64,000 nucleotides of DNA from the NCBI GenBank assembly GCA_965216565.1, contig OZ244170.1:320001-384000 (forward strand), written 5' to 3'. The position numbers and the translations under genes were made by a program. The notes beneath the pieces were generated by a model. The model saw only the letters and a program-made list of their open reading frames with translations. It made no database searches and had not been told where the DNA came from. Source of the DNA: Bythopirellula sp. (GTDB taxonomy: Bacteria > Planctomycetota > Planctomycetia > Pirellulales > Lacipirellulaceae). Below, one piece after another: positions 13,120 to 47,572 of the stretch. Each line of letters starts with the position of its first letter. Within the stretch, counting starts at the first letter, position 1.

Positions 13120-14562
13120 ATGCGCGATCAGGTACTTCTCTATCTTAATGGCCGTCGTCACATGGTTGATTCGGCCGATGCCGCGCTTTCGCTGTCGGAT
13201 TATCTGCGTTACAGGCAAAGACTCACCGGCACCAAGATTGTCTGTAGCGAGGGCGACTGCGGTGCCTGTAGCGTCCTGGTAGGACGGCCTAAGAACGGTC
13301 GTCTGGAATATCAAAGTGTCGACTCTTGTATCTTGTTTGTCTTTCAACTCGAAGGGGCCCATGTGGTTTCGATCGAGGGGCTCCAGCAGGATGGTCAGTT
13401 AACGCCCGTACAACAAGCGATGGTCGACTGCCATGGTTCGCAATGCGGTTTCTGCACGCCCGGCTTCGTGACCACAATGACCGGCATGCTGGAAAATCGA
13501 CCGCAACTCGACGATGCCGACATGCGCTGCGGACTCACTGGTAACCTCTGCCGTTGTACTGGCTACACATCGATCCTCGATGCGGGTCGGGCCGTGGCGC
13601 AGGACGAGCATAAACGGCTGGAAGAGCTTTATCCCTCCGCAGAAATGATTGCCGACTTTGAGCAACATGCCGACGACGAAATTGCCTTGAGTCATACTTC
13701 GCCTGAGACTGCGCACAAAATTAATCTGCCGCGAACGCTCTCCGAAGCTCTTAAGACGTTGGCAGATCACCCCAAGTCGACCATCATCGCAGGGGCGACG
13801 GATTTGGGTGTACGAATTAATAAAACACGCAATTTCCCCACTACGGTTCTGGACCTAAACCGAGTGAGCGAACTACAGCAAATCACCGTTGCAGACCATC
13901 AGTTAGAGCTTGGTGCTCGTGTCAGTTGGACTGCGATGGAAGAGATTTGTGCGGCGAACATTCCACAGTTCGAAGGAATCGTTTCAGTCTTTGGTTCGCC
14001 CCAGATTCGAAACATGGGCACCCTGGGTGGCAACATCATTAATGCCTCTCCCATTGCCGATTCACTACCTTTACTCCACGTGATGCATGCCGAGCTAGAG
14101 TTGGCGTCGGCCGACGGAACCCGGCGAGTCGATATCAACGATTTCTACCAGGATTACAAACAGTTTGATCTTCATCCAGGCGAGATGCTTACCAAAATCG
14201 TCTTGCCACTGCCTGACGAATCAGAACTACTCAGGCTCTACAAAATCTCCCGTCGGCGGGATTTGGATATCTCCAGCTTTACCGCCGCCATCCGGATGCA
14301 GGTCGAGGGCGGCACGATTTCGTCCGTTGCGATCGCCTACGGTGCGGTGGGGCCCATCATCCTCCGTTTATCACAGACTGAAGCCTTCCTCACCGGGCAA
14401 TCCTTTTCTGAAGAGACTATGTATGCGGCGGGCGATATTGCGGTTTCAGAAATTACACCCATCAGTGATGTCCGCGGGTCGGCCGACTATCGCTATCAAC
14501 TCGCACGCAATGTATTGCTAAAATTTTATCACGAACATCAGCCAGCCGTGTTGGTTGCCTAA
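13120..14562 (+). CDS. xdhA: Xanthine dehydrogenase small subunit (2Fe-2S + FAD)
   Basis: GTKIVCSEGDCGAC, QCGFCTPG, GNLCRCTGY, AGATD, QIRNMGTLGGN, SPIADS, DVRGSADYR. Confidence 0.93.
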   Translation: MRDQVLLYLNGRRHMVDSADAALSLSDYLRYRQRLTGTKIVCSEGDCGACSVLVGRPKNGRLEYQSVDSCILFVFQLEGAHVVSIEGLQQDGQLTPVQQAMVDCHGSQCGFCTPGFVTTMTGMLENRPQLDDADMRCGLTGNLCRCTGYTSILDAGRAVAQDEHKRLEELYPSAEMIADFEQHADDEIALSHTSPETAHKINLPRTLSEALKTLADHPKSTIIAGATDLGVRINKTRNFPTTVLDLNRVSELQQITVADHQLELGARVSWTAMEEICAANIPQFEGIVSVFGSPQIRNMGTLGGNIINASPIADSLPLLHVMHAELELASADGTRRVDINDFYQDYKQFDLHPGEMLTKIVLPLPDESELLRLYKISRRRDLDISSFTAAIRMQVEGGTISSVAIAYGAVGPIILRLSQTEAFLTGQSFSEETMYAAGDIAVSEITPISDVRGSADYRYQLARNVLLKFYHEHQPAVLVA

Positions 14563-14590
14563 CCCCATTTAGATTGAAGAGCCAGAATTA

Positions 14591-16936
14591 ATGCCCTCCG
14601 TCGGATCCCCATTGCCGCACGATGCTGCCCATGGCCATGTTACCGGGCAGGCGCCTTACTTGGACGATCTTCGTTGCCTTGAAGGTGAATTGCACGTGGG
14701 TTTTGTCGGGAGCCCTGTGGCCTGTGGCGATCTGCTGGGTATCGATCTCACCGAAGCCGCAGCAGTGCCCGGCGTGGTGGGGTGCTACACGGCCGAAGAT
14801 GTCGAAGGTCACAACATTTTTGGTCTGGTCGTGGCAGACGAACCGTTCCTAGCCCAAGGCAATCTGCTGTATATGGGGCAGCCAGTGGCGATTATCGCTG
14901 CTGAAACGCGCGATGCTCTAGATCGTGCTCGCAAACTGGCGAAGGTTGACTATCGCGAGACGAAGCCGCTTCTCGACTTGGAAGAAGCAATCCGCAACGA
15001 ACGGTTCCTAGGATCCGTGCTTCGCATTGCTCGGGGCGACGCCGACCAGGCCCTGGAAAATTCGGAGCACCGCATTTCCGGCACGTTCACCAGCGGCGGA
15101 CAAGAACAGTTTTATCTGGAGTCGCAAGCCGCGATTGCCTATCCCGGCGAGCAAGGGCAGATGGTTGTTCACTCGTCCACTCAGAATCCCACCGAGATTC
15201 AAATTGTGGTGGCGGAGGTTTTGGGCCTGGGGCAACACGAAGTTGTTTGCATCTGCAAGCGAATGGGGGGGGCATTCGGCGGCAAGGAAACGCAGGCCGC
15301 CATTCCTGCCCTAATGGCCGCACTGGTGGCCCAAAAGACGGGCCGGCCCGCACGTGTAATTTACAACAAAGACGACGACATGTGCGTCACCGGCAAACGG
15401 CACCAATATCTGACCCGTTGGGAAGTAGGCTTCGATGGCGAGGGGCGGATTCAAGCGTTACGCTGCAATTACTTCTCCAACGGCGGAGCTTCCACGGACC
15501 TCTCGCCTCCGGTCATGGAGCGTACTTTGCTCCACGCCGATAATGCCTATTATTTTCCGAACGTCGAACTGAATGGTCGGATTTGCTTTACCAATATCCC
15601 CCCGAATACCGCGTTCCGCGGATTTGGTGGTCCTCAGTCGATGGCCGTTACGGAGAACGTCCTCGAATCGATCGCCCAACATTTGGGCCGCGACCCCTAC
15701 GACATCCGACTGGCGAATCTCTACGGCGTCGGCGAACGCAACATCACACCTTATGGGCAGGTTTTTGAGAAAAACCATTTGCCGGAAATCTTCGCTACTC
15801 TCGCCGCCCAGTCGCACTACAAGCAACGGCGGAAAGAGATCGCAAACTTCAATGCAAACTCGCAGCTACAATTGCGGGGCTTAGCAATGACTGGGGTGAA
15901 ATTTGGGATTTCGTTCACCACCAAATTTCTGAACCAAGGGAACGCCTTAGTCAATATTTACACCGACGGTACAATTCAAGTTTCCACTGGTGCCACGGAG
16001 ATGGGGCAGGGCGTGAATGTCAAGATTCGCCAATTGGTGGCGGATGAGTTTGGCATCGATCCCCACTTTGTCGTGGTGATGCCCACGAGTACAGAGAAGA
16101 ACAACAACACCTCGCCGACCGCCGCATCAGCCAGTACCGATCTCAACGGTGCCGCGGCAGTCAATGCATGTCAGCAAATCCGCAATCGTTTAGAAGAGTT
16201 CGCCGCCGAACGTCTGTCCGATATCGATGCCGGATTGCAGGCATCTCCCCGCCACATTGAGTTTGTCGGTGGTGAAGTTTACGACAGTCGCCGGCCCCAG
16301 GTGAAAGTACCATTCCCCCAGCTGTGTGCTGACGCTCGATGCGCACGCGTGGACTTAGGAGCCCGCGGATTCTTCGCCACACCAGGCGTCGATTTCAATC
16401 GAGAAACGGGACGTGGAACACCGTTCTTCTATTACACTCAGGGAGCAGCAGCCGCAGAGGTTGTGATTGATCGCTTTACCGGCGAATTGCAAGTCAAACG
16501 CGTTGATCTCTTGATCGACATTGGCGAGTCGATCAACCCGGGTGTCGATCGCGGACAGGTAATTGGTGGATTTGTCCAAGGCATGGGCTGGGTCACTACC
16601 GAAGCGCTTATTTACGGTGATGGCGGGGAACTGCTGTCCCACTCGCCAACGACCTACAAAATTCCTGCCATTACCGATGTGCCCACAGAATTCAATGTTG
16701 CCACGTTCGACAACCCAGATAACGTGCGGAACATCCGCCGCAGCAAGGCGGTGGGTGAACCACCACTGATGATGGGCATCTGCGTCTGGGCCGCCGTGAA
16801 AGATGCGCTCTGGCATCTTGGGGCAGAGAACATGGACGATCTGCAGCTTCCCGCCACAGGAGAAGAAATACTGCGCTGCCTCTCCTCGGCCACAAACACA
16901 ACTGCCCCTTCGGAATCGAATATCGCGACTAAATAG
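14591..16936 (+). CDS. xdhB: Xanthine dehydrogenase molybdopterin-binding subunit
   Basis: GGQEQFYLE, RMGGAFGGKETQ, AFRGFGGPQ, TEMGQG, SPTAAS, SKAVGEPP. Confidence 0.95.
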   Translation: MPSVGSPLPHDAAHGHVTGQAPYLDDLRCLEGELHVGFVGSPVACGDLLGIDLTEAAAVPGVVGCYTAEDVEGHNIFGLVVADEPFLAQGNLLYMGQPVAIIAAETRDALDRARKLAKVDYRETKPLLDLEEAIRNERFLGSVLRIARGDADQALENSEHRISGTFTSGGQEQFYLESQAAIAYPGEQGQMVVHSSTQNPTEIQIVVAEVLGLGQHEVVCICKRMGGAFGGKETQAAIPALMAALVAQKTGRPARVIYNKDDDMCVTGKRHQYLTRWEVGFDGEGRIQALRCNYFSNGGASTDLSPPVMERTLLHADNAYYFPNVELNGRICFTNIPPNTAFRGFGGPQSMAVTENVLESIAQHLGRDPYDIRLANLYGVGERNITPYGQVFEKNHLPEIFATLAAQSHYKQRRKEIANFNANSQLQLRGLAMTGVKFGISFTTKFLNQGNALVNIYTDGTIQVSTGATEMGQGVNVKIRQLVADEFGIDPHFVVVMPTSTEKNNNTSPTAASASTDLNGAAAVNACQQIRNRLEEFAAERLSDIDAGLQASPRHIEFVGGEVYDSRRPQVKVPFPQLCADARCARVDLGARGFFATPGVDFNRETGRGTPFFYYTQGAAAAEVVIDRFTGELQVKRVDLLIDIGESINPGVDRGQVIGGFVQGMGWVTTEALIYGDGGELLSHSPTTYKIPAITDVPTEFNVATFDNPDNVRNIRRSKAVGEPPLMMGICVWAAVKDALWHLGAENMDDLQLPATGEEILRCLSSATNTTAPSESNIATK

Positions 16937-16987: not shown

Positions 16988-17800
16988 ATGCCAGCAGGTC
17001 ATGGATTTGTCGAACGGCTTGCCGAACTCACTCGGACCGGCGTCCCCTGCGCCAGCGTCACTCTAGTTCAGGCAATTGGCAGCACACCCCAGGACGCAGG
17101 AAGCAAGATGCTGGTCACCGCCGCGGGGCTTTCCAGTGGTACCGTTGGTGGCGGCAAGGTCGAGTTCAAAGCCTTGGAGCATGCCCAGCAAATGCTCGCC
17201 CACACGGGTCCCGAAGCACTTGCCAACGAACTGGTCGAGTGGAACCTGCAAAACGATGTTGGCATGACTTGTGGTGGCGTCGTGAAACTTTACTTCGAGA
17301 CTTACAATCTTTGCGATTGGCAGATCGTTGTGTTTGGTGCGGGCCACGTTGCGGCAGCGCTCATTCACTGTCTAGCACAGCTAGATTGCCGAGTGACCTG
17401 CATCGACCCCAGGCAAGAGTGGCTCGAAAAAATCCCCGAGCATCCCTCGCTCACCAAACTATGCGAACCCGATACGCGCTCGCGAGTCGCAGAGTTGCAG
17501 GACAGATCATTCGTCCTCTGCATGACGATGGGCCATGGCACCGACCGGCCCATTTTGGAAGAAATCTTTCAGCAAGAGCGAAAGTTCCCGTTCCTGGGAG
17601 TCATCGGCAGCAAGGCCAAACGCTCTGTCCTCAAGCGAGAATTGCTCGAGGCTAAGATTCCTGAACAGTCCATCGACACCATCCACTGCCCCATTGGTTT
17701 GCCGATTGGCACTAATCAGCCTGGGGAAATCGCGGTAAGTATTACCGCCCAACTAATCCAGCAACGCGACCAATGGCGCGCCACTGCCGATAAGGTGTAG
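16988..17800 (+). CDS. xdhC: Xanthine dehydrogenase accessory (Moco insertion) protein
   Basis: GSTPQDAGSKM, GTVGGG, MTCGG, FGAGHV, GVIGSKAK, CPIGL; follows xdhAB. Confidence 0.92.
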   Translation: MPAGHGFVERLAELTRTGVPCASVTLVQAIGSTPQDAGSKMLVTAAGLSSGTVGGGKVEFKALEHAQQMLAHTGPEALANELVEWNLQNDVGMTCGGVVKLYFETYNLCDWQIVVFGAGHVAAALIHCLAQLDCRVTCIDPRQEWLEKIPEHPSLTKLCEPDTRSRVAELQDRSFVLCMTMGHGTDRPILEEIFQQERKFPFLGVIGSKAKRSVLKRELLEAKIPEQSIDTIHCPIGLPIGTNQPGEIAVSITAQLIQQRDQWRATADKV

Positions 17801-17955: not shown

Positions 17956-18651
17956 ATGGCGACCCAAGCGCCCATGGCTTCACCGAAATCCGACTCTCAG
18001 GCGAAGGATAATTTTGTGTCTGGTGTAGTTCCCGTCGATCATCCGTTAGTCCAATACCACGTCACAAAGTTGCGCGATCAAGCGACAAAGCCGGCCGAAT
18101 TTCGAAATTCGGTACGCTGCTTGGCTGAGTTGATGGCCTACGAAGCGACGAAAGATTTGCCAATCGTCACCAAGAAGGTGCAAACTCCGCTTGCCGAAAC
18201 CGATGGTGCCAAGATCGACGGTCGTGTCGGCATCGTTCCTATTTTGCGAGCTGGACTTAGCATGGTCGATCCAGTGCTCGACCTTGTGCCTACCTCCGAA
18301 GTTTGGCATTTAGGTTTGTACCGCGACGAGGAAACTGCCCGCCCAGTTCGTTACTATGACAAACTGCCCGAGAAGCGCCCCGTAGATATCGCACTGATCG
18401 TCGATCCGATGCTAGCCACCGGTGGTTCAGTGACTGCGGCGTTGCAGTCGCTCCGCGAGTGGGGAGTGCCGCGTGTGAAGGTGCTCTCGCTAATTGCCTC
18501 GCAAGAAGGTGTCGACGTTGTCTCTTCTCAGTTCCCCGAGGCACAGATCTACGTCTGTCAGATCGATCCAGTCTTGAACGAGAACAAATTCATCGTGCCC
18601 GGTCTCGGCGATGCGGGTGACCGAATTTTCAACACGGTCGATCCGAGCTAG
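17956..18651 (+). CDS. upp: Uracil phosphoribosyltransferase
   Basis: VPILRAGL, VDPMLATGGS, IVPGLGDAGDR. Confidence 0.96.
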   Translation: MATQAPMASPKSDSQAKDNFVSGVVPVDHPLVQYHVTKLRDQATKPAEFRNSVRCLAELMAYEATKDLPIVTKKVQTPLAETDGAKIDGRVGIVPILRAGLSMVDPVLDLVPTSEVWHLGLYRDEETARPVRYYDKLPEKRPVDIALIVDPMLATGGSVTAALQSLREWGVPRVKVLSLIASQEGVDVVSSQFPEAQIYVCQIDPVLNENKFIVPGLGDAGDRIFNTVDPS

Positions 18652-18656
18652 GCAAC

Positions 18657-19964
18657 ATGGAACTCAACTTTCCCATCTTGTTAGCCGCAGCAGACGATGT
18701 CGCGGCTACCACCGAATCGATCCCACTCTCCGAACGTCTTGTTAGCGTTCTGGGTTTAATTGTGATTATCGGCCTGGCTTGGCTGATGAGTTCCAATAAG
18801 AAGCGTTTTCCTATGCGGATTGTGCTCTCTGGGCTTGCTCTGCAATTCGCTTTTGCGGTGATCATCCTCCGCACGAAGCCAGGGAAATGGATTTTTCAAG
18901 GCGTAAATACCGTTTTCGTCAGCTTGCTCGATTGCGTGCAAGCCGGTTCTGAGTTTGTCTTCGGAGAGAACTTCTACGAGCACTTTTTCGCTTTCAAAGT
19001 TTTGCCGACGATTATCTTTTTCTCGGCGCTGATGTCTGTATTTTACTATTACGGCGTCATTCAGAAGGTGGTTGGGGTATTTGCCACGGTCATGCAGAAA
19101 ACACTGGGCACTTCGGGGGCGGAGACGCTCTCTGCGGCGGCCAACGTGTTTGTAGGACAAACGGAGGCCCCGCTCGTAATTCGCCCGTATATCAGCTCGA
19201 TGACCACGTCAGAGCTCAATGCCGTCATGGTCGGCGGATTTGCCACCATGGCCGGTGGCGTGCTGGGAGCGCTTTCTGAAATGGGCATTCCCGCGGGGCA
19301 CTTGCTCTCGGCCTCGGTGATCTCTGCACCAGGAGCGTTACTACTCGCAAAAGTCATGCAGCCAGAAACAGAGACTCCCAAAACAATGGGCACCGTCTCT
19401 ATCGATGTCGAAGAGAAAAGCACCAACGTGCTGGAAGCGATTGCCGTCGGCACCACCGGGGGAATGAAGCTGGCCCTCAACGTCGGTGCCATGCTCATAG
19501 TTTTCTTGGCGATGATTACGCTGGTGAATATGATCGTTGGCTGGGTGGGAGTTCAACTCAATCAAGTTGCCGATGATGGCACGAGCCTGTGGTCGTTGGA
19601 GGCCGCCTTGAGCTATCTGTTCTATCCCATGGCTTGGCTGATTGGCATTGAGTCGGGCGACTGCAAACGGGCCGGCGAATTGATGGGTCTCAAGATGGCC
19701 ACCAACGAATTCGTCGCCTACGGACGTCTTGCCGAATGGGGAACCGAGGACAGCACCGTTCAAATTAGCCAACGCACTCGAGACATCATGACTTATGCCC
19801 TGTGCGGTTTCGCCAACTTCAGCTCGATCGGTATCCAACTGGGCGGCATCGGCGGCATCGCTCCCGATCGTCAGGGCGACCTCGCTCGGTTAGGACTGCG
19901 GGCAATGCTGGGGGGAACTATGGCCGCATTTATGACTGCCTGCATTGCGGGCTTATTACTATAA
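18657..19964 (+). CDS. nupC: Concentrative nucleoside transporter (CNT/NupC family)
   Basis: FAFKVLPTIIFFS, NVFVGQTEAP, NEFVAY, LCGFANFSSIGIQ; multiple TM helices. Confidence 0.92.
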   Translation: MELNFPILLAAADDVAATTESIPLSERLVSVLGLIVIIGLAWLMSSNKKRFPMRIVLSGLALQFAFAVIILRTKPGKWIFQGVNTVFVSLLDCVQAGSEFVFGENFYEHFFAFKVLPTIIFFSALMSVFYYYGVIQKVVGVFATVMQKTLGTSGAETLSAAANVFVGQTEAPLVIRPYISSMTTSELNAVMVGGFATMAGGVLGALSEMGIPAGHLLSASVISAPGALLLAKVMQPETETPKTMGTVSIDVEEKSTNVLEAIAVGTTGGMKLALNVGAMLIVFLAMITLVNMIVGWVGVQLNQVADDGTSLWSLEAALSYLFYPMAWLIGIESGDCKRAGELMGLKMATNEFVAYGRLAEWGTEDSTVQISQRTRDIMTYALCGFANFSSIGIQLGGIGGIAPDRQGDLARLGLRAMLGGTMAAFMTACIAGLLL

Positions 19965-20024
19965 TTCAATTGACTAAGCTCGATTGATTTGCATTCACAT
20001 TCCTGGGAAAGGATCATATTCCAG

Positions 20025-20579
20025 ATGAAAATCTTGCTAGACAAAGAGGCTCTCCACGATGGCGTTTCTCGCATGGCACAAAATATCGAAACCGACTACG
20101 AGGGTCGCCACCTGACCATCGTCGGCGTACTCACCGGTAGTGTCGTCTTGCTAGCCGACTTGATCCGCCTCATCGATCAGCCAATGCGAGTGGGAGTGAT
20201 TCAGGCCAGCAGCTATCGGGGCGCAACTACCGAACGTGGCGAACTTATCATCAATTCCGAGCTGATGCTCGACATCAAGGGCCGCGATGTGCTACTGGTC
20301 GACGATATTTTCGATACCGGCCATACGCTTTCTCAGGTAGTAGAGAAGCTACAAGAGTTTGAGCCTTCGTCCGTTCGCTCGGCGGTTTTGCTTCGCAAAG
20401 AAGGTCGCCAGGAAGTCGAGTACGAACCCGACTTTGCGGCATTCCATATTCCAGATGAGTTTGTTGTCGGCTATGGCCTCGATTACGAAGACATGTACCG
20501 CAATCTGCCTTATCTGGGGTCGTTGGAAGACGAGGACCTCAAACGCCACGCCGCCGAGCACGCCACAGCCCAACAGTAG
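20025..20579 (+). CDS. hpt: Hypoxanthine phosphoribosyltransferase
   Basis: VLLVDDIFDTGHTL PRPP loop, FVVGYGLDY...YRNLPY. Confidence 0.95.
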   Translation: MKILLDKEALHDGVSRMAQNIETDYEGRHLTIVGVLTGSVVLLADLIRLIDQPMRVGVIQASSYRGATTERGELIINSELMLDIKGRDVLLVDDIFDTGHTLSQVVEKLQEFEPSSVRSAVLLRKEGRQEVEYEPDFAAFHIPDEFVVGYGLDYEDMYRNLPYLGSLEDEDLKRHAAEHATAQQ

Positions 20580-20728: not shown

Positions 20729-20917
20729 CCAACCTAATGGGGGCGGGATTGACCTCAGCCCCAATGGAGCCGGCATTCACCTCAGCTCTGATGAAGACGG
20801 CAATCACCTCAGCCCAGATAGGGGCGTCATTTACCCCATCTCTGATCGGAGCGGTATTCACCTCAGCCCCGATGGAGGTGACATTCACCTGAGCCCCGAT
20901 AGGGGCGGCATTCAATA
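20729..20917. repeat. Tandem array of 7 x 27-bp degenerate units, consensus ~CAGCCCCGATGGGGGCGGCATTCACCT
   Basis: Units start at 20729, 20756, 20783, 20810, 20837, 20864 and 20891, an exact 27-bp period with no spacers. Confidence 0.9.
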
Positions 20918-20978
20918 GCCCAGGGCGCAAGCCCTGGGTCTAGAATCTCGATAGTAAAAAAGCCCTGAAGGGGCGACA
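20892..20978. repeat. REP-like three-hairpin element
   Basis: GCCCC-GATA-GGGGC, CCCAGGGC-GCAA-GCCCTGGG and GCCCT-GAA-GGGGC hairpins between the convergent hpt and endonuclease genes. Confidence 0.7.
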
Positions 20979-27090: not shown

Positions 27091-27195
27091 CTAGATTAGA
27101 CTCTCCCTCTCAGTCCGTCACATCAGCGGCCAGCCCCCTTATCGGTCGCTATCTATATTCTACTCAGTAGCTGCAAATGGGACAAACCAGCGCAT

Positions 27196-27231
27196 AAAAA
27201 ACGGTCGGTCACCAAATGGGCGACCGACCGT
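27196..27231 (-). terminator. Rho-independent terminator after the small PEP-CTERM gene
   Basis: ACGGTCGGTC...GACCGACCGT stem preceded by an A-run on + (U-tail on -). Confidence 0.75.
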
Positions 27232-27275
27232 CTATAAAACGCTATATCTGAGGATCTACCTCAGTCTCACATCGT

Positions 27276-28010: not shown

Positions 28011-28125
28011 TAGCGTTTCCCCTTTCAAAAGGTGCAAAAACTCCTGAGCGATCCTCGTTGATACGCTCAATGAAATAAAAAAGTAAAACGAACGAAAAGC
28101 GTGGGTTCCTAATTCTTATTGCAAG

Positions 28126-33112: not shown

Positions 33113-33253
33113 TCGACCGAATCACTCCTCTTGATTTTGGCACCCGGTGCGATAGGTTAGAGTATTCGATCAAATGGTTTTGGACTCCTTGGCAGGTCCA
33201 ATTCCCTTCGGCTACCGTCTTCTAATCTTCAATTCCCAATAAGGGGTATTGCC

Positions 33254-36363: not shown

Positions 36364-36533
36364 AATAAAGTATTGTCAATTTCAGGTGTCTGCGGAATAG
36401 AGAGTCCCCTACTTACCAGCTTGAGGACTGTCCGCAATTCTAACAACCACAACCGTTAGGCTCTAGCTAGGGTGAGTTGGTTGAGATAGATTTCAAGTAA
36501 CAAAATAATGCCAAGTGTAGGGAGAATCCATAT

Positions 36534-37799: not shown

Positions 37800-37819
37800 G
37801 ATAGTTGGAAAGGTGTAGT

Positions 37820-39271: not shown

Positions 39272-40581
39272 TGCCCATCTGTTTCACTAATGCGAAGCTG
39301 GTACAACTCGAACCTCCGCTAGTTCTTGACGGTGGATTGCGAGTTGAAGAAGGTGCCATTGTTGAATTGGGGGAGTCGATTGCTCCGGCCGAGGGCGATG
39401 AGATCGTCGATTGCCAGGGAGCGGTTCTTATGCCGGGGTTGGTCAATGGGCACACGCACCTCTATTCGGCGTTGGCAGCGGGTATGCCGGCCCCGCCGCG
39501 TGAACCGAAGAATTTTCACGAGATCCTAGAATTGGTCTGGTGGCGGCTCGATCTGGCCCATTCGCTGGAAAGCGTGAAGGTCAGCGGCCAGATTGGGGCT
39601 CTGGCGGCACTCCGCTGCGGGACGACGACGCTCATCGACCACCATGCTTCTCCGTCAGTCATTGAAGGCTCATTGACGCACTTGCAGGATGGCATCGCGC
39701 AAGTTGGTTCTCGCGGCGTGTTGTGCTACGAGGTGACCGATCGCAACGCGCCGGACGAAGGGCAGCAGGGACTCATGGAGAATGTCCGCTATGCTGAGTC
39801 GTGTGTAGATAGCCAACAGTTTGCTGCGATGATTGGTGCCCATGCGAGTTTCACATTGGAGGAGACTTCGCTCGCTTCTTGTGTTGATGTGGCAAAACGC
39901 CTGAAGTTGGGCGTGCATATCCATGTGGCTGAGGACCCAGTCGACAAAAAGGTCACGCAAGAAAAGTTCGGAATGGGGCTGTTGGACCGCTTTGAAAAAC
40001 ATGGCTTGCTGGATGTGCCGAATACAATTTTCGCACACTGCACCCATCTGGATGAAGACCAAATGGCGCGTCTGAGCGAGCACAAGAATTCGATTCGACT
40101 CGCCCACAATCCCAATTCAAATATGAATAACGGGGTCGGCTACACGCCGGTCGCCAAGTGGCCGCAGACGCCGCTGCTGGGGACCGATGGCATCGGGGCC
40201 GACATGTGGCGGGAAGCACGGACCGCCCAGTTCAAGAGCCACGATGCCGGGTTGCCCGTGCCGTTTGGCCAGCCCCTGAAGATGATCGCCCAATCCGCCG
40301 AGTTTGCATCAAACGCCTTGGGCACACGAGTAGGTGTTCTTGAAAAGGGCGCCGCCGCAGATTTGGTGGTAACCAGCTACACCCCCGCCACACCGCTCGA
40401 TGCCACCAACCTCGCCGGGCATTTTCTCTATGCCATGGGACCCGAATTCGTACGGCACGTAATGATCGACGGTCGTTGGTGCCTGAAAGAAGGCAAAGTC
40501 ACCAGTTGCGACGAACAATCAATTCGCGCTCATTCGGTGGATGTCGCCCATGGGTTGCACGAGCGGATGTCGGCTTTGTAG
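39271..40581 (+). CDS. ssnA: SsnA-like amidohydrolase
   Basis: PGLVNGHTHLYS, GTTTLIDHHASP, CYEVTDR, GAHASFTL, HIHVAE, SNMNNGVG, GTDG. Confidence 0.82.
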   Translation: MPICFTNAKLVQLEPPLVLDGGLRVEEGAIVELGESIAPAEGDEIVDCQGAVLMPGLVNGHTHLYSALAAGMPAPPREPKNFHEILELVWWRLDLAHSLESVKVSGQIGALAALRCGTTTLIDHHASPSVIEGSLTHLQDGIAQVGSRGVLCYEVTDRNAPDEGQQGLMENVRYAESCVDSQQFAAMIGAHASFTLEETSLASCVDVAKRLKLGVHIHVAEDPVDKKVTQEKFGMGLLDRFEKHGLLDVPNTIFAHCTHLDEDQMARLSEHKNSIRLAHNPNSNMNNGVGYTPVAKWPQTPLLGTDGIGADMWREARTAQFKSHDAGLPVPFGQPLKMIAQSAEFASNALGTRVGVLEKGAAADLVVTSYTPATPLDATNLAGHFLYAMGPEFVRHVMIDGRWCLKEGKVTSCDEQSIRAHSVDVAHGLHERMSAL

Positions 40582-40616: not shown

Positions 40617-41576
40617 TCAAAGCACGATCCGCGTACCGCTCGTGCCGGCCAGAATCTCTGTGAACTTATTCACGTGGCCAATCAAGACTTGGGAGTTCGG
40701 CTGTTTCGAATGTTGCAGAAACTCGATTGCGGCGCCGATTTTGGGGCCCATGGAGCCGGCACCGAATTCGCCTTGCTTCGCATATTCTTCAGCGTCGGCC
40801 AGTGAGAGTTCCTTGAGTTCTTTTTCAGCGGGTGTACCGAATCCCAGGCAGACGCGCTCGACGCCGGTGAGAATCACTACGGTGGAGATTCCCAGGCCAC
40901 GAGCCAGCAGTGCGGTGGTGAGATCCTTGTCGATCACTGCCGCGGCGCCTTGGTAGAGTCCTTGTTCGTCTCGGTAGACGGGAATGCCACCGCCCCCGCA
41001 GCAGACGACGTGCCCGCCGGCGTCGACGAGGCCTGCGATAGTTTCCACCTCGAGAATTTCTTGAGGCAATGGCGAGGGCACGATGCGGCGATAGGCATCC
41101 TCGGCAACTTTTTGGATGTGCCAATCATCTTCGCGCTGGTGTGCCTCGGCGATGGAACGCAAGAGGCGGGGACCGATGGGCTTGGTGGGATTGTTGAACG
41201 CGGGATCGTCGCGGGCAACCAGAACCGAAGTAACAATGGTGGTTGCTTTGCCGGGTTGGCCCCGGCGATGCAGATCGTTGGTGAGACACTGGGCGATCAT
41301 GTAGCCCATACCGGCTTGGGTGTCTGCGACGCAGACCTCAAGTGGAATCGGATAAAGCTCGGTGCGGGCGATCTCCACGCGTCGCAGCACGTTGCCTACT
41401 TGGGGGCCGTTGCCGTGGGTGATGATGAGCTGATGCCCATCGGCGATGGCAGCCCCCAACTGCTGGGCGGTTTCGTTTGTTTGGGCGAACTGTTCCTCAA
41501 TGGTCCCCTGACTATCGGGGCTGCTGATCGCATTGCCGCCGAGGGCGACGACTAGTTTTTCTGTTGCCTTGGGCAT
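40617..41576 (-). CDS. arcC: Carbamate kinase
   Basis: VVALGGNAI, THGNGPQVG, PTKPIGP, RRIVPSP, GGGGIPV, AVIDKD, GSMGPK. Confidence 0.95.
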   Translation of the reverse strand: MPKATEKLVVALGGNAISSPDSQGTIEEQFAQTNETAQQLGAAIADGHQLIITHGNGPQVGNVLRRVEIARTELYPIPLEVCVADTQAGMGYMIAQCLTNDLHRRGQPGKATTIVTSVLVARDDPAFNNPTKPIGPRLLRSIAEAHQREDDWHIQKVAEDAYRRIVPSPLPQEILEVETIAGLVDAGGHVVCCGGGGIPVYRDEQGLYQGAAAVIDKDLTTALLARGLGISTVVILTGVERVCLGFGTPAEKELKELSLADAEEYAKQGEFGAGSMGPKIGAAIEFLQHSKQPNSQVLIGHVNKFTEILAGTSGTRIVL

Positions 41577-41595
41577 AGAAGTCTTCAACTAGGGT

Positions 41596-41695
41596 TGAAT
41601 CGAGAAAAAACAACTTCCGATTTTTTTAGTCCCCTCACCTAGCCTCTCCCCAAGGGGGCGAGGGAATTGGGGAGAAGTTGTTTTTTCTCGATTCA
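41596..41695. repeat. ~100-bp structured repeat, copy 1: perfect 22-bp terminal inverted repeat enclosing a REP-like core
   Basis: TGAATCGAGAAAAAACAACTTC (41596-41617) / GAAGTTGTTTTTTCTCGATTCA (41674-41695); core CCTCACCTAGCCTCTCCCCAAGGGGGCGAGGGA. Confidence 0.85.
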
Positions 41696-41783: not shown

Positions 41784-42815
41784 CTAGAACGGCCGCTCCC
41801 GCATCGTGCAGGACATGATGGCTTTGGCGGTATGCAACCGGTTTTCTGCTTCGGGGAATACCACCGATTGCGGGCCGTCGATCACTGCGTCGGTCACCTC
41901 CGAGCCACGGTCGGCAGGCAGGCAGTGCATGTAAACTGCCGACTTCTTGGCGAGTCCCATGCGCCGTTCGTCGCAGATCCAATCTTTGAACTGATCGTTC
42001 TTGTCGAGGCAGGCCCGTTGGTTGTCGTCGATTTCCTTTTGGCTCGTCGCATTCTGGCGTTCGAGCATCAGGTCGTACACGCCCCAACTCTTTGGATAGA
42101 CAATGTCGGCGTCGGCAAAAGCGGCGTCCATGTCGTCGACAATCTCGAACTTCCCACCGGAAGCCTCGGCATTGGCCTGGGCAGCTTCAACCGTCCGACC
42201 AATCAGGTTGTAACCGGGCGGGTGCGCGAGCGACACGTGCATTCCAAAGCGAGTCATCAAGGTGATGAGCCCCTGCGGAACGCTTAACGGTTTGGCGTAC
42301 GAAGGAGCGTAGGCCCAACTAACAGCGATCTTAAGCTCCGAAAGATCTTTGCCAAACGTTTCGCGGATGGTTTGCAGGTCAGCCAGCGTTTGCGTGGGAT
42401 GATCGACGTCGCATTGCATGTTGATAATCGGCACGTCGGTGGCCTCAGCCATCTCGCGCATGTAGCGATTGCCTTCGTTGAGTACCAAATCGTGGCGGAT
42501 GCAAATCCCATGACCCATCGAGGCAAGAATCTTGCCGGTGTCGGCAGGTGTTTCGCCGTGGCTAATTTGGGTGACGTCGGCGTCCAGGAAATGGGCGTGC
42601 CCGCCGAGTTGTGTCATGCCTGCTTCGAAGGCATTCCGGGTGCGCGTAGATTTATCGAAGAACAGCAAGTAGGCAGTCTGATGGGGTAGTAGTTGAGTTG
42701 GTTCCCCACGATGGAACTTTTCTTTGAGTTCCGTCGTAGTATCAAGCAGCAATTCAAGCTCCTCGGAGCTCAAGTCTTGTGTTTCGATATAGTTCTTGCC
42801 CTTCAAATTAGCCAT
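41784..42815 (-). CDS. ygeW: YgeW-type (knotted) carbamoyltransferase
   Basis: STRTR, HGET, HPTQ, SWAYAPSYAKPLSVPQG, YPKSW, HCLPA, EAENRLH. Confidence 0.85.
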   Translation of the reverse strand: MANLKGKNYIETQDLSSEELELLLDTTTELKEKFHRGEPTQLLPHQTAYLLFFDKSTRTRNAFEAGMTQLGGHAHFLDADVTQISHGETPADTGKILASMGHGICIRHDLVLNEGNRYMREMAEATDVPIINMQCDVDHPTQTLADLQTIRETFGKDLSELKIAVSWAYAPSYAKPLSVPQGLITLMTRFGMHVSLAHPPGYNLIGRTVEAAQANAEASGGKFEIVDDMDAAFADADIVYPKSWGVYDLMLERQNATSQKEIDDNQRACLDKNDQFKDWICDERRMGLAKKSAVYMHCLPADRGSEVTDAVIDGPQSVVFPEAENRLHTAKAIMSCTMRERPF

Positions 42816-42817
42816 GC

Positions 42818-44083
42818 TTAGCCTTTCTTGCGTTTGAAATTCATCGGTGTTTTGTTCTCGCGACCCTCTGCCAGATCGCAGTAGGACTGGCCATAGCCAG
42901 CGTAGAATGCGGCACAATCGACTAGGTGCTTAATCGGCACAGAGTCGTTCACCGTGTGGGCGACGTTCTCCGCAGCTGGCCCAAAGCCGACGCAAGGAAT
43001 ACCAAACATGCCGGCGATTGAAACTGCGTTAGTGCTGAATGTCCAGCGATGGACCGTTGGAGCTTTGCCCAGTGTTTCGCGATGCGCCTTGATGGCCGCT
43101 TGTACTTGGAGATCGTCTTCTTCCTCGCACCACGTGGGGAAGTATTTTTCAGTTTCATAGGTGAGCCCCGTGTAGCTGGGGCGGGCGTAAACGGGCACGG
43201 CGACTTTAGCTTTGACCCCGGCACGCTTTACGGCATCTTTCACTTCGGCGACGGCCGAGCGTTTCGTATCGCCGATCGTGAGCCGTCGATCAAGATGCAA
43301 GTAGGCCTGCCCCGGTACGGCACAGAGACTGGGTGTCTTGCAGTCTACGTAGCTGACAGTGATGGTGCCTTTGCCGAGGAATTTATCTTCTTTCAATCGT
43401 TCGTTCAGTTTTTCAATTTCAACGGCAATCTTCGATGCCTTGTAAATCGCGTTGTCGCCCTTGTGCGGCATCGAACCGTGGCACGACTTGCCTTTGCAGG
43501 TGACGCCGATTTCCATCCGACCGCGATGGCCTCGCAGGATGGTGCAGTTGGTAGAGTCGGTCACCACGACAGCATCGGGGCGAATCTTGCCTTCGTTAAC
43601 AATGTACTGCCAGCAGAGGCCGTCGCAATCTTCTTCCATCACGGTGAAAGTAAGCAATAGACAATATTCGGACGTATCGAGCCCAAGATCGCGAATGATT
43701 TTAGCGGCGTAAACCATCGCAGGTACGGCGCCTTCCTGATCGCCTGCCCCGCGGCCCCAGACTTTGCCATCGGCCACCTTGCCCTTGTAGGGATCGTGTT
43801 TCCATTCAGAGCGGTCTCCCACACCGACGGTATCGATGTGGGCATCGATGGCGATCAGCTTTTTACCTTTCCCGGGTTTTCCCACTTGTCCGAACAGGTT
43901 GCCCATTTTGTCTGTCCAGATCTTGTCGAACGCACCGGTCGATTTCATCTCGGCACGGATGCGCTCGATAACACCCTTTTCCTCGGCAGATTCCGAGGGA
44001 ATTGCGATCAGGTCGCGCAGAAAGCGGACCATCTTTTTTTCGTATTTTTTGGCAGCTTGGTGAAGCGAAGTTTGTTTTTTCAT
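42818..44083 (-). CDS. ygeY: YgeY-family M20 metallohydrolase
   Basis: DAHIDTVG, GRGAGDQEG, VMEEDCDGLCWQY, GHRGRMEI, SCHGSMP, WTFSTN. Confidence 0.9.
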   Translation of the reverse strand: MKKQTSLHQAAKKYEKKMVRFLRDLIAIPSESAEEKGVIERIRAEMKSTGAFDKIWTDKMGNLFGQVGKPGKGKKLIAIDAHIDTVGVGDRSEWKHDPYKGKVADGKVWGRGAGDQEGAVPAMVYAAKIIRDLGLDTSEYCLLLTFTVMEEDCDGLCWQYIVNEGKIRPDAVVVTDSTNCTILRGHRGRMEIGVTCKGKSCHGSMPHKGDNAIYKASKIAVEIEKLNERLKEDKFLGKGTITVSYVDCKTPSLCAVPGQAYLHLDRRLTIGDTKRSAVAEVKDAVKRAGVKAKVAVPVYARPSYTGLTYETEKYFPTWCEEEDDLQVQAAIKAHRETLGKAPTVHRWTFSTNAVSIAGMFGIPCVGFGPAAENVAHTVNDSVPIKHLVDCAAFYAGYGQSYCDLAEGRENKTPMNFKRKKG

Positions 44084-44313
44084 GGAGAGTCTAATTTAAC
44101 AAAGCCTATTGGGAGCCGAAATGGAAGCTTGCGCTTGCAAAGGCTCCGATGGTGTGTGAAAATCGAAGGCGGTGGAAGGATAGTCTGGCAGTTGCAAAAT
44201 ATACTGATGCCAGGCACGAGTTGGCCACCAAAATTTCTTAGCTCGTGACGTTGCGTCGGCGGCGTGGCGGTGCGAGATGTTTTGGAATCTTTTCCCACTG
44301 GAGGCCAACCGAA

Positions 44314-46983
44314 GTGTCGACTGTCACTGAGTCTTCTCATCTTCTGTCCTGTTTCGTCAATGGGGATGCCGTCGAATTGCGGATACCCGAAGCCGACGAC
44401 CTCACTTTGCTCGACGTCCTGCGTGATTATTTGGGCATCACGTCACCCAAGAATGGGTGCCAGCCGCAAGCACAATGCGGGTGCTGCACGGTCTTGATCG
44501 ACGGCAAGCCGGTGCTTTCCTGCGCGCTAAAACCGAAAAAAGTGGAAGGCAAATCCATCACCACGCTGGAGGGTCTGGACGAAGAACACCGGGCACAAAT
44601 CTCAAATTCGTTTGTCCAATGCGGCGGTGTGCAGTGTGGATTCTGCATTCCTGGCATGGCGATGCGAGCGGTTGGATTGTGCGACAAAAAACCAGAGCCT
44701 ACGCGGGAAGAAATCGCCACAAGTTTGAAACCACACCTGTGCCGCTGCACCGGTTACGCCCAAATTGTCGATAGCGTCGAAGAGTATGCCCGCGTTCGCC
44801 GCGGTGGTGAAGCACAGCCTGTTGAAGAAGCTGATTTGAGTGGCAAAGTCGGCACCAGTTTGCCTCGTTACACGGGGCACGACGCCGTGTTGGGTGACCG
44901 TAAGTTTGTCGATGACATGACCGTGCCAGAGATGCTCTATGGGGCGGTGAAATTGTCGGACCATCCGCGGGCGACCGTGAAATCGATCGATGGAACTGCG
45001 GCACTTGAATTGGCGGGCGTCCATCGCGTAGTGACTGCAGCCGACATCCCAGGGGATCCGTATGTTGGATTGATCGAAAACGATTGGCCGACGTTCATCG
45101 CCATCGGGGAAACCTCGCGCTGCACGGGCGACGTGATCGCCGCCGTGGTAGCCGACGACCAGCGACTGGCCCGTCGCGCGGCGGAGCTTATTCAGGTCGA
45201 ATACGAAGTGCTTGAGCCGGTAACCGACCCGCGCAAGGCGTTGGAGCCAGACGCACCACTAGTGCATCCGCAACGCGATAGCAATCTGCTCAGCAAGTCG
45301 TCGCTCAAACGGGGCGACATCGAAGCCGGGTTTGCCAACTCCGCTCATATTTTGGAAGACACCTACCGCACGCAGCACATCGAGCATTTGTTCCTGGAGC
45401 CAGAAAGTTGTATCGCAGTTCCGTCAGACGAGAATGGCGAACGATCGTTGTATATCTACAGCCAAGGTCAGGGTGTATTTGACGATCAGCGTCAGATTTC
45501 GTCCGTGCTGGGCGTCGACAAAGATCGCGTGCAAGTTGAGCTAGTCTCTAACGGTGGGGCATTTGGCGGCAAAGAGGATATGTCGATTCAAGCTCAGACC
45601 GCACTCATGGCTTGGATTGTTGGCAAACCCGTCAAGCTTACATTGACGCGTCCCGAGAGTTTCCGAATTCACCCCAAGCGGCATCCTATTGAACTCAGCT
45701 ACAAAATTGGCTGCGATGCCGAGGGGCACATCATGGCCGTCCAGGCTCGAATTATTGGCGACAAGGGTGCCTATGCCTCAGTGGGAGCGAAAGTGCTGGA
45801 ACGTGCCGGTGGCCACGCAACAGGGCCGTATCGGGTGCCAGCCATCGACATGGAATCGCTCGCCGTCTACACCAACAATCCGCCCTGCGGAGCGATGCGA
45901 GGCTTTGGCGCGAATCAGGCCGCTTTTGCCATCGAGGGCTTGCTTGATCGTCTCGCCGAGAAGTGTGGCATCGATGGCTACGACATCCGCGAGCGAAACA
46001 TCCTGGGGCCAAATGAACAATTCGCTACGGGGCAGGTCCTCGATAAACCTTTCGGTTTGCGGAAGACCTTAGAATCAGTCCGCGATCAATACAAGGCGGC
46101 GAAGTTCGCTGGAATCGCTTGTGGTATTAAGAACGTAGGCATTGGTAACGGGATGCCCGACATTGGCCGGGCAGCGCTCTCCGTGGAAGACGATGGCACC
46201 GTACACATCCGTACCGGCTTCACCGAAATGGGGCAGGGGCTGTTTACCATCTGCATTCAGTTTGCGGTGGAGGCCACAGGCCTGAAGCCGGAACAGTTCG
46301 AGTGCTCCACCGACACCAGCTTAATGCTCAACTGCGGTCAGACGACGGCCAGTCGTGCGACGGTGCTCGCCGGCAATGCGATTGCCGAGGCGGGCAAGGG
46401 GCTCAAGGCGGCGCTCGACTCGGGTAAGAGTTTGGCAGACCTTGCCGGCCAGGATTTTCACGGCGAATGGATCTGCGATTACACTAGCAAGCTCGGCAAG
46501 GATATCGATAAGCCGGGCGGTCCCAAGACGCATCTGACCTATGGCTTCGCGACTCAAGTGGCGATTCTCGACGACGATGGCCGTTTGGAAAAGATGATTG
46601 CCTCGCACGATGTGGGCCGCGTAATCAATCCGGTGCATCTCGACGGTCAGATGTACGGTTCGCTGCACATGGGTATCGGTTATGCACTAACCGAGGATTT
46701 TCCCGTCGAAGGGGGACAGATTCAGGCCAAGAAGATGAACGACTGCGGCGTGCTGCGTTCGCATCAAATGCCGGAGATGGAGCTGATTTACGTCGAAGAA
46801 GAAGATCCCGAGTGCCCATTTGGTGCCCGGGGTGTCGGCGAGATTGGTCTCGTTCCCACCGCTCCAGCGATTGCCGGGGCCCTGTATAAGTTCGACGGTG
46901 TGGTACGTCGGCAACTGCCAATGAGCGATTCGCCGGCTGCCTTGGCTATCACCAAGCCTAATGCGCGACGCAATGGCAAGTAG
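44314..46983 (+). CDS. Selenium-dependent-type xanthine dehydrogenase family protein (2Fe-2S + Moco fusion)
   Basis: GGAGG RBS at 44300 then GTG; KNGCQPQAQCGCC, QCGFCIPG, LCRCTGY, EHLFLEPE, GGAFGGKED, AMRGFG, GVGEIG; no FAD domain. Confidence 0.85.
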   Translation: MSTVTESSHLLSCFVNGDAVELRIPEADDLTLLDVLRDYLGITSPKNGCQPQAQCGCCTVLIDGKPVLSCALKPKKVEGKSITTLEGLDEEHRAQISNSFVQCGGVQCGFCIPGMAMRAVGLCDKKPEPTREEIATSLKPHLCRCTGYAQIVDSVEEYARVRRGGEAQPVEEADLSGKVGTSLPRYTGHDAVLGDRKFVDDMTVPEMLYGAVKLSDHPRATVKSIDGTAALELAGVHRVVTAADIPGDPYVGLIENDWPTFIAIGETSRCTGDVIAAVVADDQRLARRAAELIQVEYEVLEPVTDPRKALEPDAPLVHPQRDSNLLSKSSLKRGDIEAGFANSAHILEDTYRTQHIEHLFLEPESCIAVPSDENGERSLYIYSQGQGVFDDQRQISSVLGVDKDRVQVELVSNGGAFGGKEDMSIQAQTALMAWIVGKPVKLTLTRPESFRIHPKRHPIELSYKIGCDAEGHIMAVQARIIGDKGAYASVGAKVLERAGGHATGPYRVPAIDMESLAVYTNNPPCGAMRGFGANQAAFAIEGLLDRLAEKCGIDGYDIRERNILGPNEQFATGQVLDKPFGLRKTLESVRDQYKAAKFAGIACGIKNVGIGNGMPDIGRAALSVEDDGTVHIRTGFTEMGQGLFTICIQFAVEATGLKPEQFECSTDTSLMLNCGQTTASRATVLAGNAIAEAGKGLKAALDSGKSLADLAGQDFHGEWICDYTSKLGKDIDKPGGPKTHLTYGFATQVAILDDDGRLEKMIASHDVGRVINPVHLDGQMYGSLHMGIGYALTEDFPVEGGQIQAKKMNDCGVLRSHQMPEMELIYVEEEDPECPFGARGVGEIGLVPTAPAIAGALYKFDGVVRRQLPMSDSPAALAITKPNARRNGK

Positions 46984-47572
46984 TGCCAAACAGATAATCG
47001 GCGTTCTCCTGGCTGCGGGGCGGGGACGGCGGATGAATGGCCGCAAGCAATTCCATCCTTGGCCAACGTCCCAGGGGGAGAAACCCCTAGTGGCCGCTGC
47101 GTACGATGCTGTTGTGGACGCGTGTACGGAAATGGTCGTCGTCCTCGGACATCGGGGCGACGAGGTGGCAGCCGCGCTGGAGCCCCGCCAGTTTCACCGT
47201 TGTCCCAGCGATCCCGACGCACCCATGTTTGCCTCGGTCCAGGCAGGGATTCGTGCGGCTCGGGAAATTGACGATCGGTTCTCTGTTCTGTTGCACCCCG
47301 CCGATCATCCAGAAGTGGCCCCGTTAACGCTAACTTTGCTCATGCAACAAGTGGAGGAGCATCCCGATCTGGTTGTTATTCCGGAATACGAATCGCGAGG
47401 CGGCCACCCAGTAGTGATTCCCGCGGCAATAGCCGAAAGCCTACTGTCAGCCGAATGTCCTCAAGGCTTGGGAGAATACTGGAACCAGCATCCCGAGCTT
47501 TGCCATCGTTTTGCGGTAGAAGACAAGAGCATCGTACGCGACATAGATCACGCTAAGGGCGAAAAGAGCTGA
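46973..47572 (+). CDS. MocA-like molybdenum cofactor cytidylyltransferase
   Basis: LLAAGRGRRM, PADHP, GGHPV, DID; overlaps the Xdh stop. Confidence 0.8.
   Translation: MASSAKQIIGVLLAAGRGRRMNGRKQFHPWPTSQGEKPLVAAAYDAVVDACTEMVVVLGHRGDEVAAALEPRQFHRCPSDPDAPMFASVQAGIRAAREIDDRFSVLLHPADHPEVAPLTLTLLMQQVEEHPDLVVIPEYESRGGHPVVIPAAIAESLLSAECPQGLGEYWNQHPELCHRFAVEDKSIVRDIDHAKGEKS

Follow-up and report, generated by a model that had tools for sequence, protein, structure and literature searches.

A run of about 34 kb in the genome of the planctomycete Bythopirellula sp. places genes for surface nucleases, nucleoside uptake, base salvage and purine breakdown side by side, which raises the question of whether it is one inherited system for living on nucleic acids or a meeting of separate modules. 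The window analysed is the 64,000-nucleotide stretch C1:320001-384000 of a single-contig 5.21-Mb genome (G000, 94% complete), and the block extends within it from xdhA to a mocA-like gene. A sequence-only reading of the window had proposed a single system resembling a polysaccharide utilisation locus (PUL) but directed at extracellular DNA and RNA. Our analysis points, with moderate confidence, to a modular nucleic-acid scavenging neighbourhood with a variant reductive urate route and a leader-RNA gate, whose modules would travel separately and have been joined or split more than once. Every gene named in the earlier reading was found in its place (domain calls were made with Pfam and NCBIfam profiles, and the cut-off referred to throughout is the NCBIfam family cut-off), and XdhA, XdhB, XdhC, Upp, NupC, Hpt, YgeY and the TIGR03311 molybdoenzyme score over it, although three genes had been overlooked, namely those for a 264-aa PEP-CTERM protein and two pyridoxal-phosphate (PLP) enzymes. 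DNA-scavenging cassettes and the reductive urate pathway are already known kinds of system, and the locus is a variant of both; what stands out here is a candidate ON riboswitch, together with a module that takes the place of uricase while lacking YgeX and, apparently, any dependence on selenium.

The linkage of these genes across relatives bears most directly on the question. We searched 60 genomes with endA, ygeY, xdhB and nupC and inspected 20-80 kb around the matches; endA was full-length or near full-length in 23 relatives, and the flanks were inspected for 22 of them (G006 was left out). The surface cassette around endA is present in 12 of the 22 (G004, G005, G007, G008, G009, G010, G012, G016, G020, G022, G025 and G029), rearranged in G010, with endA about 40 kb away in G020 and the second endonuclease/exonuclease/phosphatase-family gene (EEP2) missing in G029; it is partly visible in G023 and G024 and unreadable in G017. 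Eleven relatives carry ygeY of the reductive module, and seven are informative for linkage, G017 and G024 being too fragmented for such calls. As in G000, xdhABC, the cassette and the reductive module stand in one run in G010 and G025. In G005, G007, G008 and G012, xdhABC adjoins the reductive module and the cassette lies elsewhere, while G020 holds xdhABC, upp-nupC-hpt and the cassette together with the reductive module elsewhere, and in G022 and G023 xdh adjoins cassette genes on short contigs. The upp-nupC-hpt genes lie inside the block only in G000 and G020. Since the modules are linked differently across the informative relatives, the block is modular, and the 34 kb consist of three modules (the cassette; upp-nupC-hpt; and xdhABC with the reductive genes) and not one fixed PUL-like unit.

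Similar associations recur further away. A genome of another family (G046) holds EEP1, EEP2, upp, nupC, a pyrimidine-nucleoside phosphorylase gene (pdp), two purine-nucleoside phosphorylase (PNP) genes and deoC within 17 kb, and one of a third family (G349) holds EEP2, a 700-aa protein gene, EEP1 and nupC together; two PNPs, pdp, upp, an EEP gene, nupC, allantoin genes and xdhAB are joined in G035, and an EEP gene, deoC, PNPs, hpt, nupC and upp in G009. The recurrence of nuclease genes beside nupC in two other families supports nucleic-acid scavenging. Sub-blocks unlinked in every relative would have refuted the sequence-only reading, but they are contiguous in G010 and G025, and links between nuclease and nucleoside genes appear in these two families. 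Within G000, the clustering exceeds mere background, because the EndA domain, EEP2, the binding protein, upp, hpt, xdhC and arcC are each single copy and all inside the block, in a genome with about 250 PEP-CTERM-like open reading frames (ORFs; crude pattern) and 64 DUF1559 genes. Four observations nevertheless weigh against a scavenging neighbourhood: the three-way linkage occurs in just two of the seven informative relatives; the cassette lies away from xdh in G004, G005, G007, G008, G009, G012, G016 and G029; endA lacks a surrounding cassette in seven genomes of other genera; and nupC or EEP1 is nearby in just one of 19 other-family EEP2 loci (G349).

The same data speak to the possibility that the 34 kb is inherited as one co-regulated PUL-like unit, which we consider unlikely. 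Such a unit would account for a module order shared by G000 and G025, whose RpoB sequences fall in different clades (FastTree, without bootstraps and without G023), as well as for the contiguity in G010 and of xdhABC with the cassette in G022 and G023; however, the unit is split in five of the seven informative relatives, and at least eight changes of gene direction within the block imply several transcription units. In the PULs of Bacteroidota, uptake genes adjoin those for surface hydrolases and putative binding proteins, typically with SusC/SusD and a regulator, whereas the planctomycete block contains neither a SusC/SusD pair nor a TonB-dependent receptor or a regulator of its own: the block ORFs gave no Pfam or NCBIfam match to SusC/SusD, a TonB-dependent receptor, a regulator or transcription factor, or an ABC permease. 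Some needed steps are encoded elsewhere (pdp, two PNPs and deoC at C1:979-983 kb, about 640 kb from the block), and footprinting upstream of EEP2, the first PLP gene and xdhA found no strong motif and none shared between modules. What survives of the original proposal is a conserved nuclease cassette repeatedly linked to nucleoside-uptake and purine genes; that it is self-contained or fixed does not, given the two complete runs in seven, the phosphorylases, deoC and hyuA outside the block and the absence of SusCD or a regulator, and “PUL-like” holds as an analogy only.

The distribution of the reductive module goes beyond the sequence-only reading. Of 37 family genomes sampled, G000 among them, 27 carry xdhB; uricase is present in 15 of these and ygeY in the remaining 12, never in the same genome, these counts being of kin genomes that are not independent; no uricase, OHCU decarboxylase or allC was found in G000. 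The ygeY genomes form three supported groups plus G024 in the RpoB tree, mixed among uricase lineages, which suggests more than one swap or loss between uricase and the reductive module. Exclusivity may be imperfect, as G024 (76% complete) has a uricase-type xdhB.

The enzymes of this module resemble those of the 2,8-dioxopurine (reductive urate) pathway, known with its enzyme roles from gut anaerobes (10.1101/2025.04.24.650524; 10.1101/2025.05.19.654654), with which it shares a DOPDH-like molybdoenzyme without FAD domain, YgfK, SsnA, YgeW, YgeY and carbamate kinase as these are described there. The molybdoenzyme (889 aa, 44314-46983, plus strand; GTG at 44314 is the most likely start) has Fe-S and molybdenum domains and no FAD domain, and scores 959 bits against a TIGR03311 cut-off of 830. 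YgfK (34345-36363, minus strand) was expected from the sequence-only reading and is present, but in a short form of 672 aa, below the TIGR03315 cut-off, with an FMN barrel and Fe-S domain; it lacks the FAD domain, because its match to E. coli YgfK (38% identity) is limited to residues 9-412 and 904-995. YgfK measures 666-746 aa in most planctomycete loci versus 1066-1124 aa in Bacteroidales loci, and UacX of C. difficile likewise lacks a FAD domain in the published description; we predict the short YgfK to be a 2,8-dioxopurine reductase with a ferredoxin-like donor. Two PLP genes, PALP1 (threonine-synthase-like) and PALP2 (cysteine-synthase-like), and ssnA lie at 36534-40581 on the plus strand (Pfam/NCBIfam assignments), SsnA being the best match, below cut-off and 37% identical to E. 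coli SsnA. They are followed on the minus strand by carbamate kinase (arcC, 40617-41588; PRK12352 over cut-off, TIGR00746 not passed; 45% identical to E. coli), a ygeW-like carbamoyltransferase (41784-42917; TIGR03316 below cut-off, 44% identical) and ygeY (42818-44083; TIGR03526 over cut-off, 52% identical), and after the molybdoenzyme gene on the plus strand by a MocA-like cytidylyltransferase (46961-47572; TIGR03310 below cut-off). The YgeW-like protein is the best match of E. coli YgeW (E 7e-72), and a separate OTC-like gene lies elsewhere in the genome. The block thus holds a DOPDH/XdhD-type molybdoenzyme together with YgfK and SsnA, both clear best genome matches, as well as the trio of YgeW, YgeY and carbamate kinase.

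Several findings count against equating this module with the pathway of gut anaerobes: SsnA, YgeW and YgfK score under their family cut-offs; YgeX was not found, with no match in G000, in any of five genomes (TIGR01747) or in any of 80 PALP2 loci; YqeC was not found in five of five genomes; and hyuA is unlinked, its 34% homolog lying at C1:800529, outside the block, in a reductive pyrimidine cluster. That cluster (L082 11525 to L083 2019; G000 C1 about 791-802 kb) also carries an aldehyde dehydrogenase, a CN-hydrolase, an NCS2 permease, a class III aminotransferase, a PreA-like protein and a dihydropyrimidinase. The planctomycete module therefore differs from its gut counterpart in lacking YgeX, YqeC and a linked HyuA and in having a short YgfK and a conserved PLP pair. 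Of the best 80 of 579 PALP2 loci, many of them short, 55 had PALP1 as a neighbour, 35 had ygfK, 34 ssnA, 32 the molybdoenzyme and 10 hyuA; ygeX adjoined none. From these neighbourhoods, the PLP pair is a candidate stand-in for YgeX, with one or both enzymes probably carrying out the final beta-elimination. On a 5-kb contig whose record is titled Granulosicoccus (L101), ygfK, ssnA and the two PLP genes are 71-83% identical to those of the G000 locus, reflecting mis-binning or transfer.

The same molybdoenzyme had been taken for a selenium-dependent xanthine dehydrogenase. The TIGR03311 enzyme is there, but the selenium dependence of the module is doubtful: the set of SelD, YqeB and YqeC that marks the selenium-cofactor trait is incomplete, with YqeC in 0 of five genomes, E. 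coli YqeB matching only XdhC in G000, and SelD over cut-off in four of 13 ygeY carriers, weakly matched in one and missing in eight. This sets the planctomycete module apart from the gut pathway, which is selenium-dependent in C. sporogenes, as do a host with a heme-copper oxidase subunit and relatives that use uricase. The heme-copper oxidase subunit I encoded in G000 scores below the CtaD cut-off; respiration of oxygen by this organism is likely. SelD in G000 lies in a 747-aa frame (C1:688407-689324), a fused form whose spread does not track the reductive module. The main texts of the two pathway papers mention no planctomycetes, riboswitches, or threonine or cysteine synthase, although their neighbourhood tables could already contain clusters of this kind.

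How entry into this route might be controlled is suggested by the leader of the molybdoenzyme gene. Alignment of upstream regions showed strong conservation before this gene (16 of 18 sequences had 8-mers in common) and delimited a 59-nt candidate riboswitch aptamer (44171-44229, plus strand) with a 5-bp P1, a conserved asymmetric internal loop (AAGGAHA / AHGAGUUGG) and a variable P2 hairpin. It is followed by an expression platform (44300-44316, plus strand) in which the Shine-Dalgarno GGAGG overlaps GGCCAAC, the complement of the aptamer's invariant GUUGGCC, just before the GTG start at 44314. In the 18-sequence alignment, 98.6% of cells are paired, with double changes at five of the 12 pairs; none of 500 shuffles attains the percent-paired or the covariation score, slid partners pair at 29-55%, and RNAalifold independently predicts the same helices. 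In total, we collected 26 distinct copies, comprising 12 from all 12 family genomes with ygeY, six from other planctomycete genomes (two of them Phycisphaeraceae) and eight from metagenomes (13 matches, of which eight were new once duplicates were collapsed). All 26 lie upstream of the urate-reducing molybdoenzyme gene, and in all 26 an RGGCCAA follows 36-142 nt downstream of the motif and overlaps the Shine-Dalgarno a few bases before the start codon; the same string precedes 165 of 4354 G000 ORFs (255-nt windows, crude starts) and occurs in 0 of 25 motif-less homolog rows. The computed probability of GUUGGCC pairing with the ribosome-binding site is at least 0.74 in 20 of the 26 copies and 0.56-0.57 in two. 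As this pairing excludes P1, a stabilised aptamer should free the ribosome site; the leader hence combines a covarying, conserved 5' structure with a computed, mutually exclusive pairing of the kind expected from an expression platform. Two points tell against it: the covariation control takes no account of kinship among the sequences, whose alignment also served to draw the structure, and the computed pairing with the ribosome-binding site is at most 0.31 in four of the 26 leaders.

G000 has one copy of the motif, none precedes the molybdoenzyme homologs of G043 or L132, and the exact pattern was absent from 400 other Planctomycetota genomes; a covariance-model search of 149 genomes returned one weak match (G105), which lies inside a coding region and was rejected, and thirteen matches of a looser pattern on viral contigs were set aside. 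Positions 44000-44400 gave no Rfam match at E up to 10. The closest known structure is the xanthine-I (NMT1) riboswitch, RF03054, described as proteobacterial, in purine-catabolic contexts, and translational, switching OFF (PMC7373994). Our motif is likewise a small hairpin of two stems whose internal loop is conserved, is likewise predicted to act on translation and stands in a similar purine-catabolic context, and the loop GAAG and UUG fall in the register of the ligand-clamp residues G7-A8-A9-G10 and U40-U41-G42 reported for xanthine-I (PMC8266621). It differs in A6, C11, G12, A39 and the P1 register, in its predicted ON behaviour and in giving no covariance-model match: it is no member of RF03054, for which the genome search found only a weak G000 match elsewhere, and the resemblance is a lead, not membership. 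Conserved TTG...AAACT-like elements occur just upstream of the motif (window about 44135-44165) and would put the transcription start at the motif.

That the motif is a cis-acting translational element is very likely, and we lean, with less assurance, towards a metabolite riboswitch; an oxidised purine as its ligand is a tentative suggestion that we would not yet back. Much the same weight falls on a leader that is cis-regulatory without being a purine riboswitch and that binds a protein or small RNA, senses the molybdenum cofactor or acts as a static translation brake. This possibility gains from the lack of an RF03054 match and from computed folding that favours the sequestered state without any ligand, and, because the motif precedes one gene family only, gene context cannot separate substrate from cofactor; it is opposed by the xanthine-I register of GAAG and UUG (PMC8266621), by the conservation of two mutually exclusive pairings and by the freely varying length of P2. 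The most complete form of the riboswitch proposal, which we offer as a speculation with the odds somewhat against it, holds that the 59-nt leader is an aptamer of an undescribed class sensing urate, xanthine or 2,8-dioxopurine, and that it switches ON translation of the enzyme at the head of a reductive urate pathway which needs neither selenium nor YgeX and has replaced uricase in several oxygen-respiring planctomycete lineages foraging nucleic acids with a PEP-CTERM cassette. In the literature searched (few subscription papers, without supplements), no riboswitch tied to the 2,8-dioxopurine pathway is reported, and motif catalogues outside Rfam 15 could already contain the motif.

The surface cassette provides the evidence for foraging itself. 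EndA (20995-22854, minus strand) has a signal-like N-terminus, an endonuclease I domain, an Ig-like stalk and a PEP-CTERM anchor; its PF04231 match covers the full model (1-235/235, E 5e-29), and R118, E119, H120, N149, R152 and E240 are invariant in 20 homologs, the REH and the downstream Asn, Arg and Glu being what we take to be functional residues of endonuclease I. In its structural model, the predicted local confidence (pLDDT) is below 50 over residues 63-230, and the fold search returned the Ig-like stalk only, the nuclease domain not being modelled. EEP1 (22882-25173, minus strand; PF03372, E 2e-7) shows a DNase I fold, beta-sandwich domains and a PEP-CTERM-type tail, with E75, H165, D203, N205, D265, D324 and H325 invariant in 12 homologs. 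It is a predicted secreted phosphoesterase whose DNase I fold is non-specific for substrate, and it counts against a nuclease role that the predicted fold fits DNase I, Tdp2 and sugar or lipid phosphatases equally. PDB sequence searches with the EndA domain, EEP1 and EEP2 found no matches. EndA and EEP1 each begin with a hydrophobic segment and end in a PEP tail, and the genome encodes an exosortase. A 1097-aa EEP1 paralog fused to a lamin-tail domain (LTD), a second candidate surface nuclease, lies at L085 8626-11919 (G000 C1 2845626-2848919). Three further proteins follow on the minus strand, LTD1 (25252-27090) and LTD2 (28126-29913), each with PF00932 twice and no catalytic domain recognised, and between them the small PEP-CTERM protein of 264 aa (27276-28070); a Dockerin-like repeat and PF07589 were recognised in this stretch (25252-29913).

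On the plus strand, EEP2 (30442-31767; EEP family, E 2e-26), a DUF1559 prepilin-like protein (31889-33112) and a GpxB-like binding protein (33254-34348; PF12974) keep their order in relatives, and the DUF1559 ortholog is 54-69% identical across relatives versus 44% for the closest G000 paralog examined. The binder, which is membrane-anchored and without its own permease (a PhnE-type permease over cut-off was found in 0 of five genomes), had been described as a PhnD-like phosphate binder; the PF12974 family stands, but its closest solved relative is GpxB and not a phosphite or phosphonate binder, the top PDB match being 9LF9 (E 1.6e-61, next match 2.8e-10). GpxB binds glycerol-1/3-phosphate (PMC12718374), which again weighs against a role in nucleic-acid use. 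Its phosphate-binding residues G112, Y138, S168, N169, S170 and H199 are invariant in 12 of 12 homologs of the planctomycete binder, with T111 as Thr or Ser and R223 as Arg in 11 and Lys in one, whereas Thr247, which binds the hydroxyl, is replaced by Ala, Val, Met or Phe in all 12, so that the Thr247 and Arg223 hydroxyl contacts of a glycerol-phosphate binder are not both kept; the planctomycete protein also has an extra invariant Arg211 and an N-terminal hydrophobic anchor. These residues suggest as ligand some phosphoester other than glycerol phosphate, possibly a nucleotide.

If the cassette instead scavenged organophosphates or phospholipids in general for phosphorus, its purine-gene neighbours would be incidental. 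The kinship of the binder to GpxB, the non-specific EEP fold and an alkaline phosphatase gene after the cassette in G005, G007, G008 and G012 would fit, yet the cassette carries a full EndA nuclease domain and is repeatedly linked to nupC, upp, PNP and deoC, and the replacement of Thr247 in 12 of 12 homologs with the extra invariant Arg points to a different phosphorylated ligand; we regard such a function as quite unlikely. Surface nucleases have biofilm and extracellular-DNA roles in other bacteria, and the roughly 250 PEP-CTERM-like proteins of this lineage could suit biofilm remodelling or the removal of extracellular DNA in place of nutrition, but the recurrent linkage with uptake, salvage and catabolic genes makes this very improbable. 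In relatives, additions to the cassette are common: a 700-aa protein in 12 genomes, a third EEP in 10 and an alkaline phosphatase in four. In G000, a third EEP at 105 kb and an alkaline phosphatase at 4.74 Mb both lie outside the block. The 700-aa secreted protein, which has no Pfam family at E 1e-7, occurs in the cassette of 12 relatives (e.g., L030 1359-3431) and in G349, not in G000, and an Atlas search with it found Dockerin/NHL-type look-alikes only.

The remaining block genes connect the surface with urate. On the plus strand, xdhA (from 13099 or 13120 to 14562; TIGR02963), xdhB (14591-16936; TIGR02965) and xdhC (16988-17800; TIGR02964), all over cut-off, are predicted to encode a NAD-type xanthine dehydrogenase converting hypoxanthine and xanthine to urate, and upp, nupC and hpt (17956-20579, plus strand; TIGR01091, TIGR00804 and TIGR01203 over cut-off) have, by family assignment, roles in nucleoside uptake and base salvage. 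A second nupC stands beside Indigoidine_A (PsuG-like) and PfkB genes (L084 9736-12909; G000 C1 about 233.7-236.9 kb), a likely pseudouridine salvage unit that would point to RNA use.

Combining these assignments, we propose that the anchored EndA and EEP1 would cleave DNA or RNA at the surface of the cell, EEP2 would trim the products in the periplasm, and the LTD proteins, the DUF1559 protein and the orphan binder would hold substrate or products. NupC would then import nucleosides, phosphorylases encoded elsewhere would free the bases, and Upp and Hpt would salvage them, with surplus purines passing to urate through XdhABC. Because the lineage has no uricase, the urate would be handled by the 2,8-dioxopurine variant, which would reduce it and open its rings to yield ammonium, ATP (through YgeW and carbamate kinase) and, by way of one or both PLP enzymes, probably pyruvate; the distant hydantoinase of the pyrimidine cluster would probably supply the HyuA step. 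In the unbound leader, the GUUGGCC strand would cover the ribosome-binding site of the urate-reducing enzyme, and a ligand, most likely an oxidised purine, would stabilise P1 and the internal loop and free that site (translational ON).

The nearest published counterparts of the cassette are the “DNA-degradation loci” of Ca. Izemoplasmatales, described beside “xanthine-degradation loci” in a report that already draws the PUL comparison and presents extracellular DNA as a major phosphorus and nitrogen source in sediments (PMC8289736). As described there, extracellular nucleases, a lamin-tail protein, phosphohydrolases and transport genes occur together, and the planctomycete block likewise unites secreted nucleases, LTD proteins, phosphohydrolases and transporters. 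Their hosts, however, are wall-less Bacillota relatives with ABC and phosphate transporters and separate xanthine loci, whereas the planctomycete version has PEP-CTERM anchors, NupC, DUF1559 and an orphan GpxB-like binder, with purine catabolism attached in some genomes. That the sequence-only reading knew of no such system described in planctomycetes agrees with the literature searched, in which no planctomycete extracellular-nucleic-acid locus is reported (“Planctomycet” appears 0 times in PMC8289736's main text), but the idea itself is in print for Izemoplasmatales. A module that lacks YqeC and YgeX and changes places with uricase among close relatives would offer a natural comparison for a molybdoenzyme working without selenium, and would give functions to two widespread families of PLP enzymes. 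Short and with a specific predicted mechanism, the RNA motif lends itself to a small ligand panel; a urate ON switch, if true, would be a useful sensor part for gout-related probiotics.

A horizontally acquired island is unsupported, as the GC of the block (0.50-0.58) is near flank values and no tRNA-end repeat is among the listed repeats. A tRNA-Ser(GCT) gene (window 47640-47729, minus strand) has its 3' end toward the block end, the usual integration-site orientation, with no flanking repeat or GC shift seen. Scans of 27000-37000 for sigma-70 promoters and terminators gave chance level only. A 27-nt tandem repeat (6.6 copies, 20737-20938) between the convergent hpt and endA overlaps an Acido-Lenti-1 RNA match on the minus strand, and the gap between arcC and ygeW holds a perfect 22-nt inverted repeat with 56 nt between its arms (window 41596-41695), which may be a small mobile or terminator-like element. 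Directly after the block follows a membrane pyrophosphatase gene (window 47832-50051), with purQ/purL 6 kb beyond (window 53603-57339).

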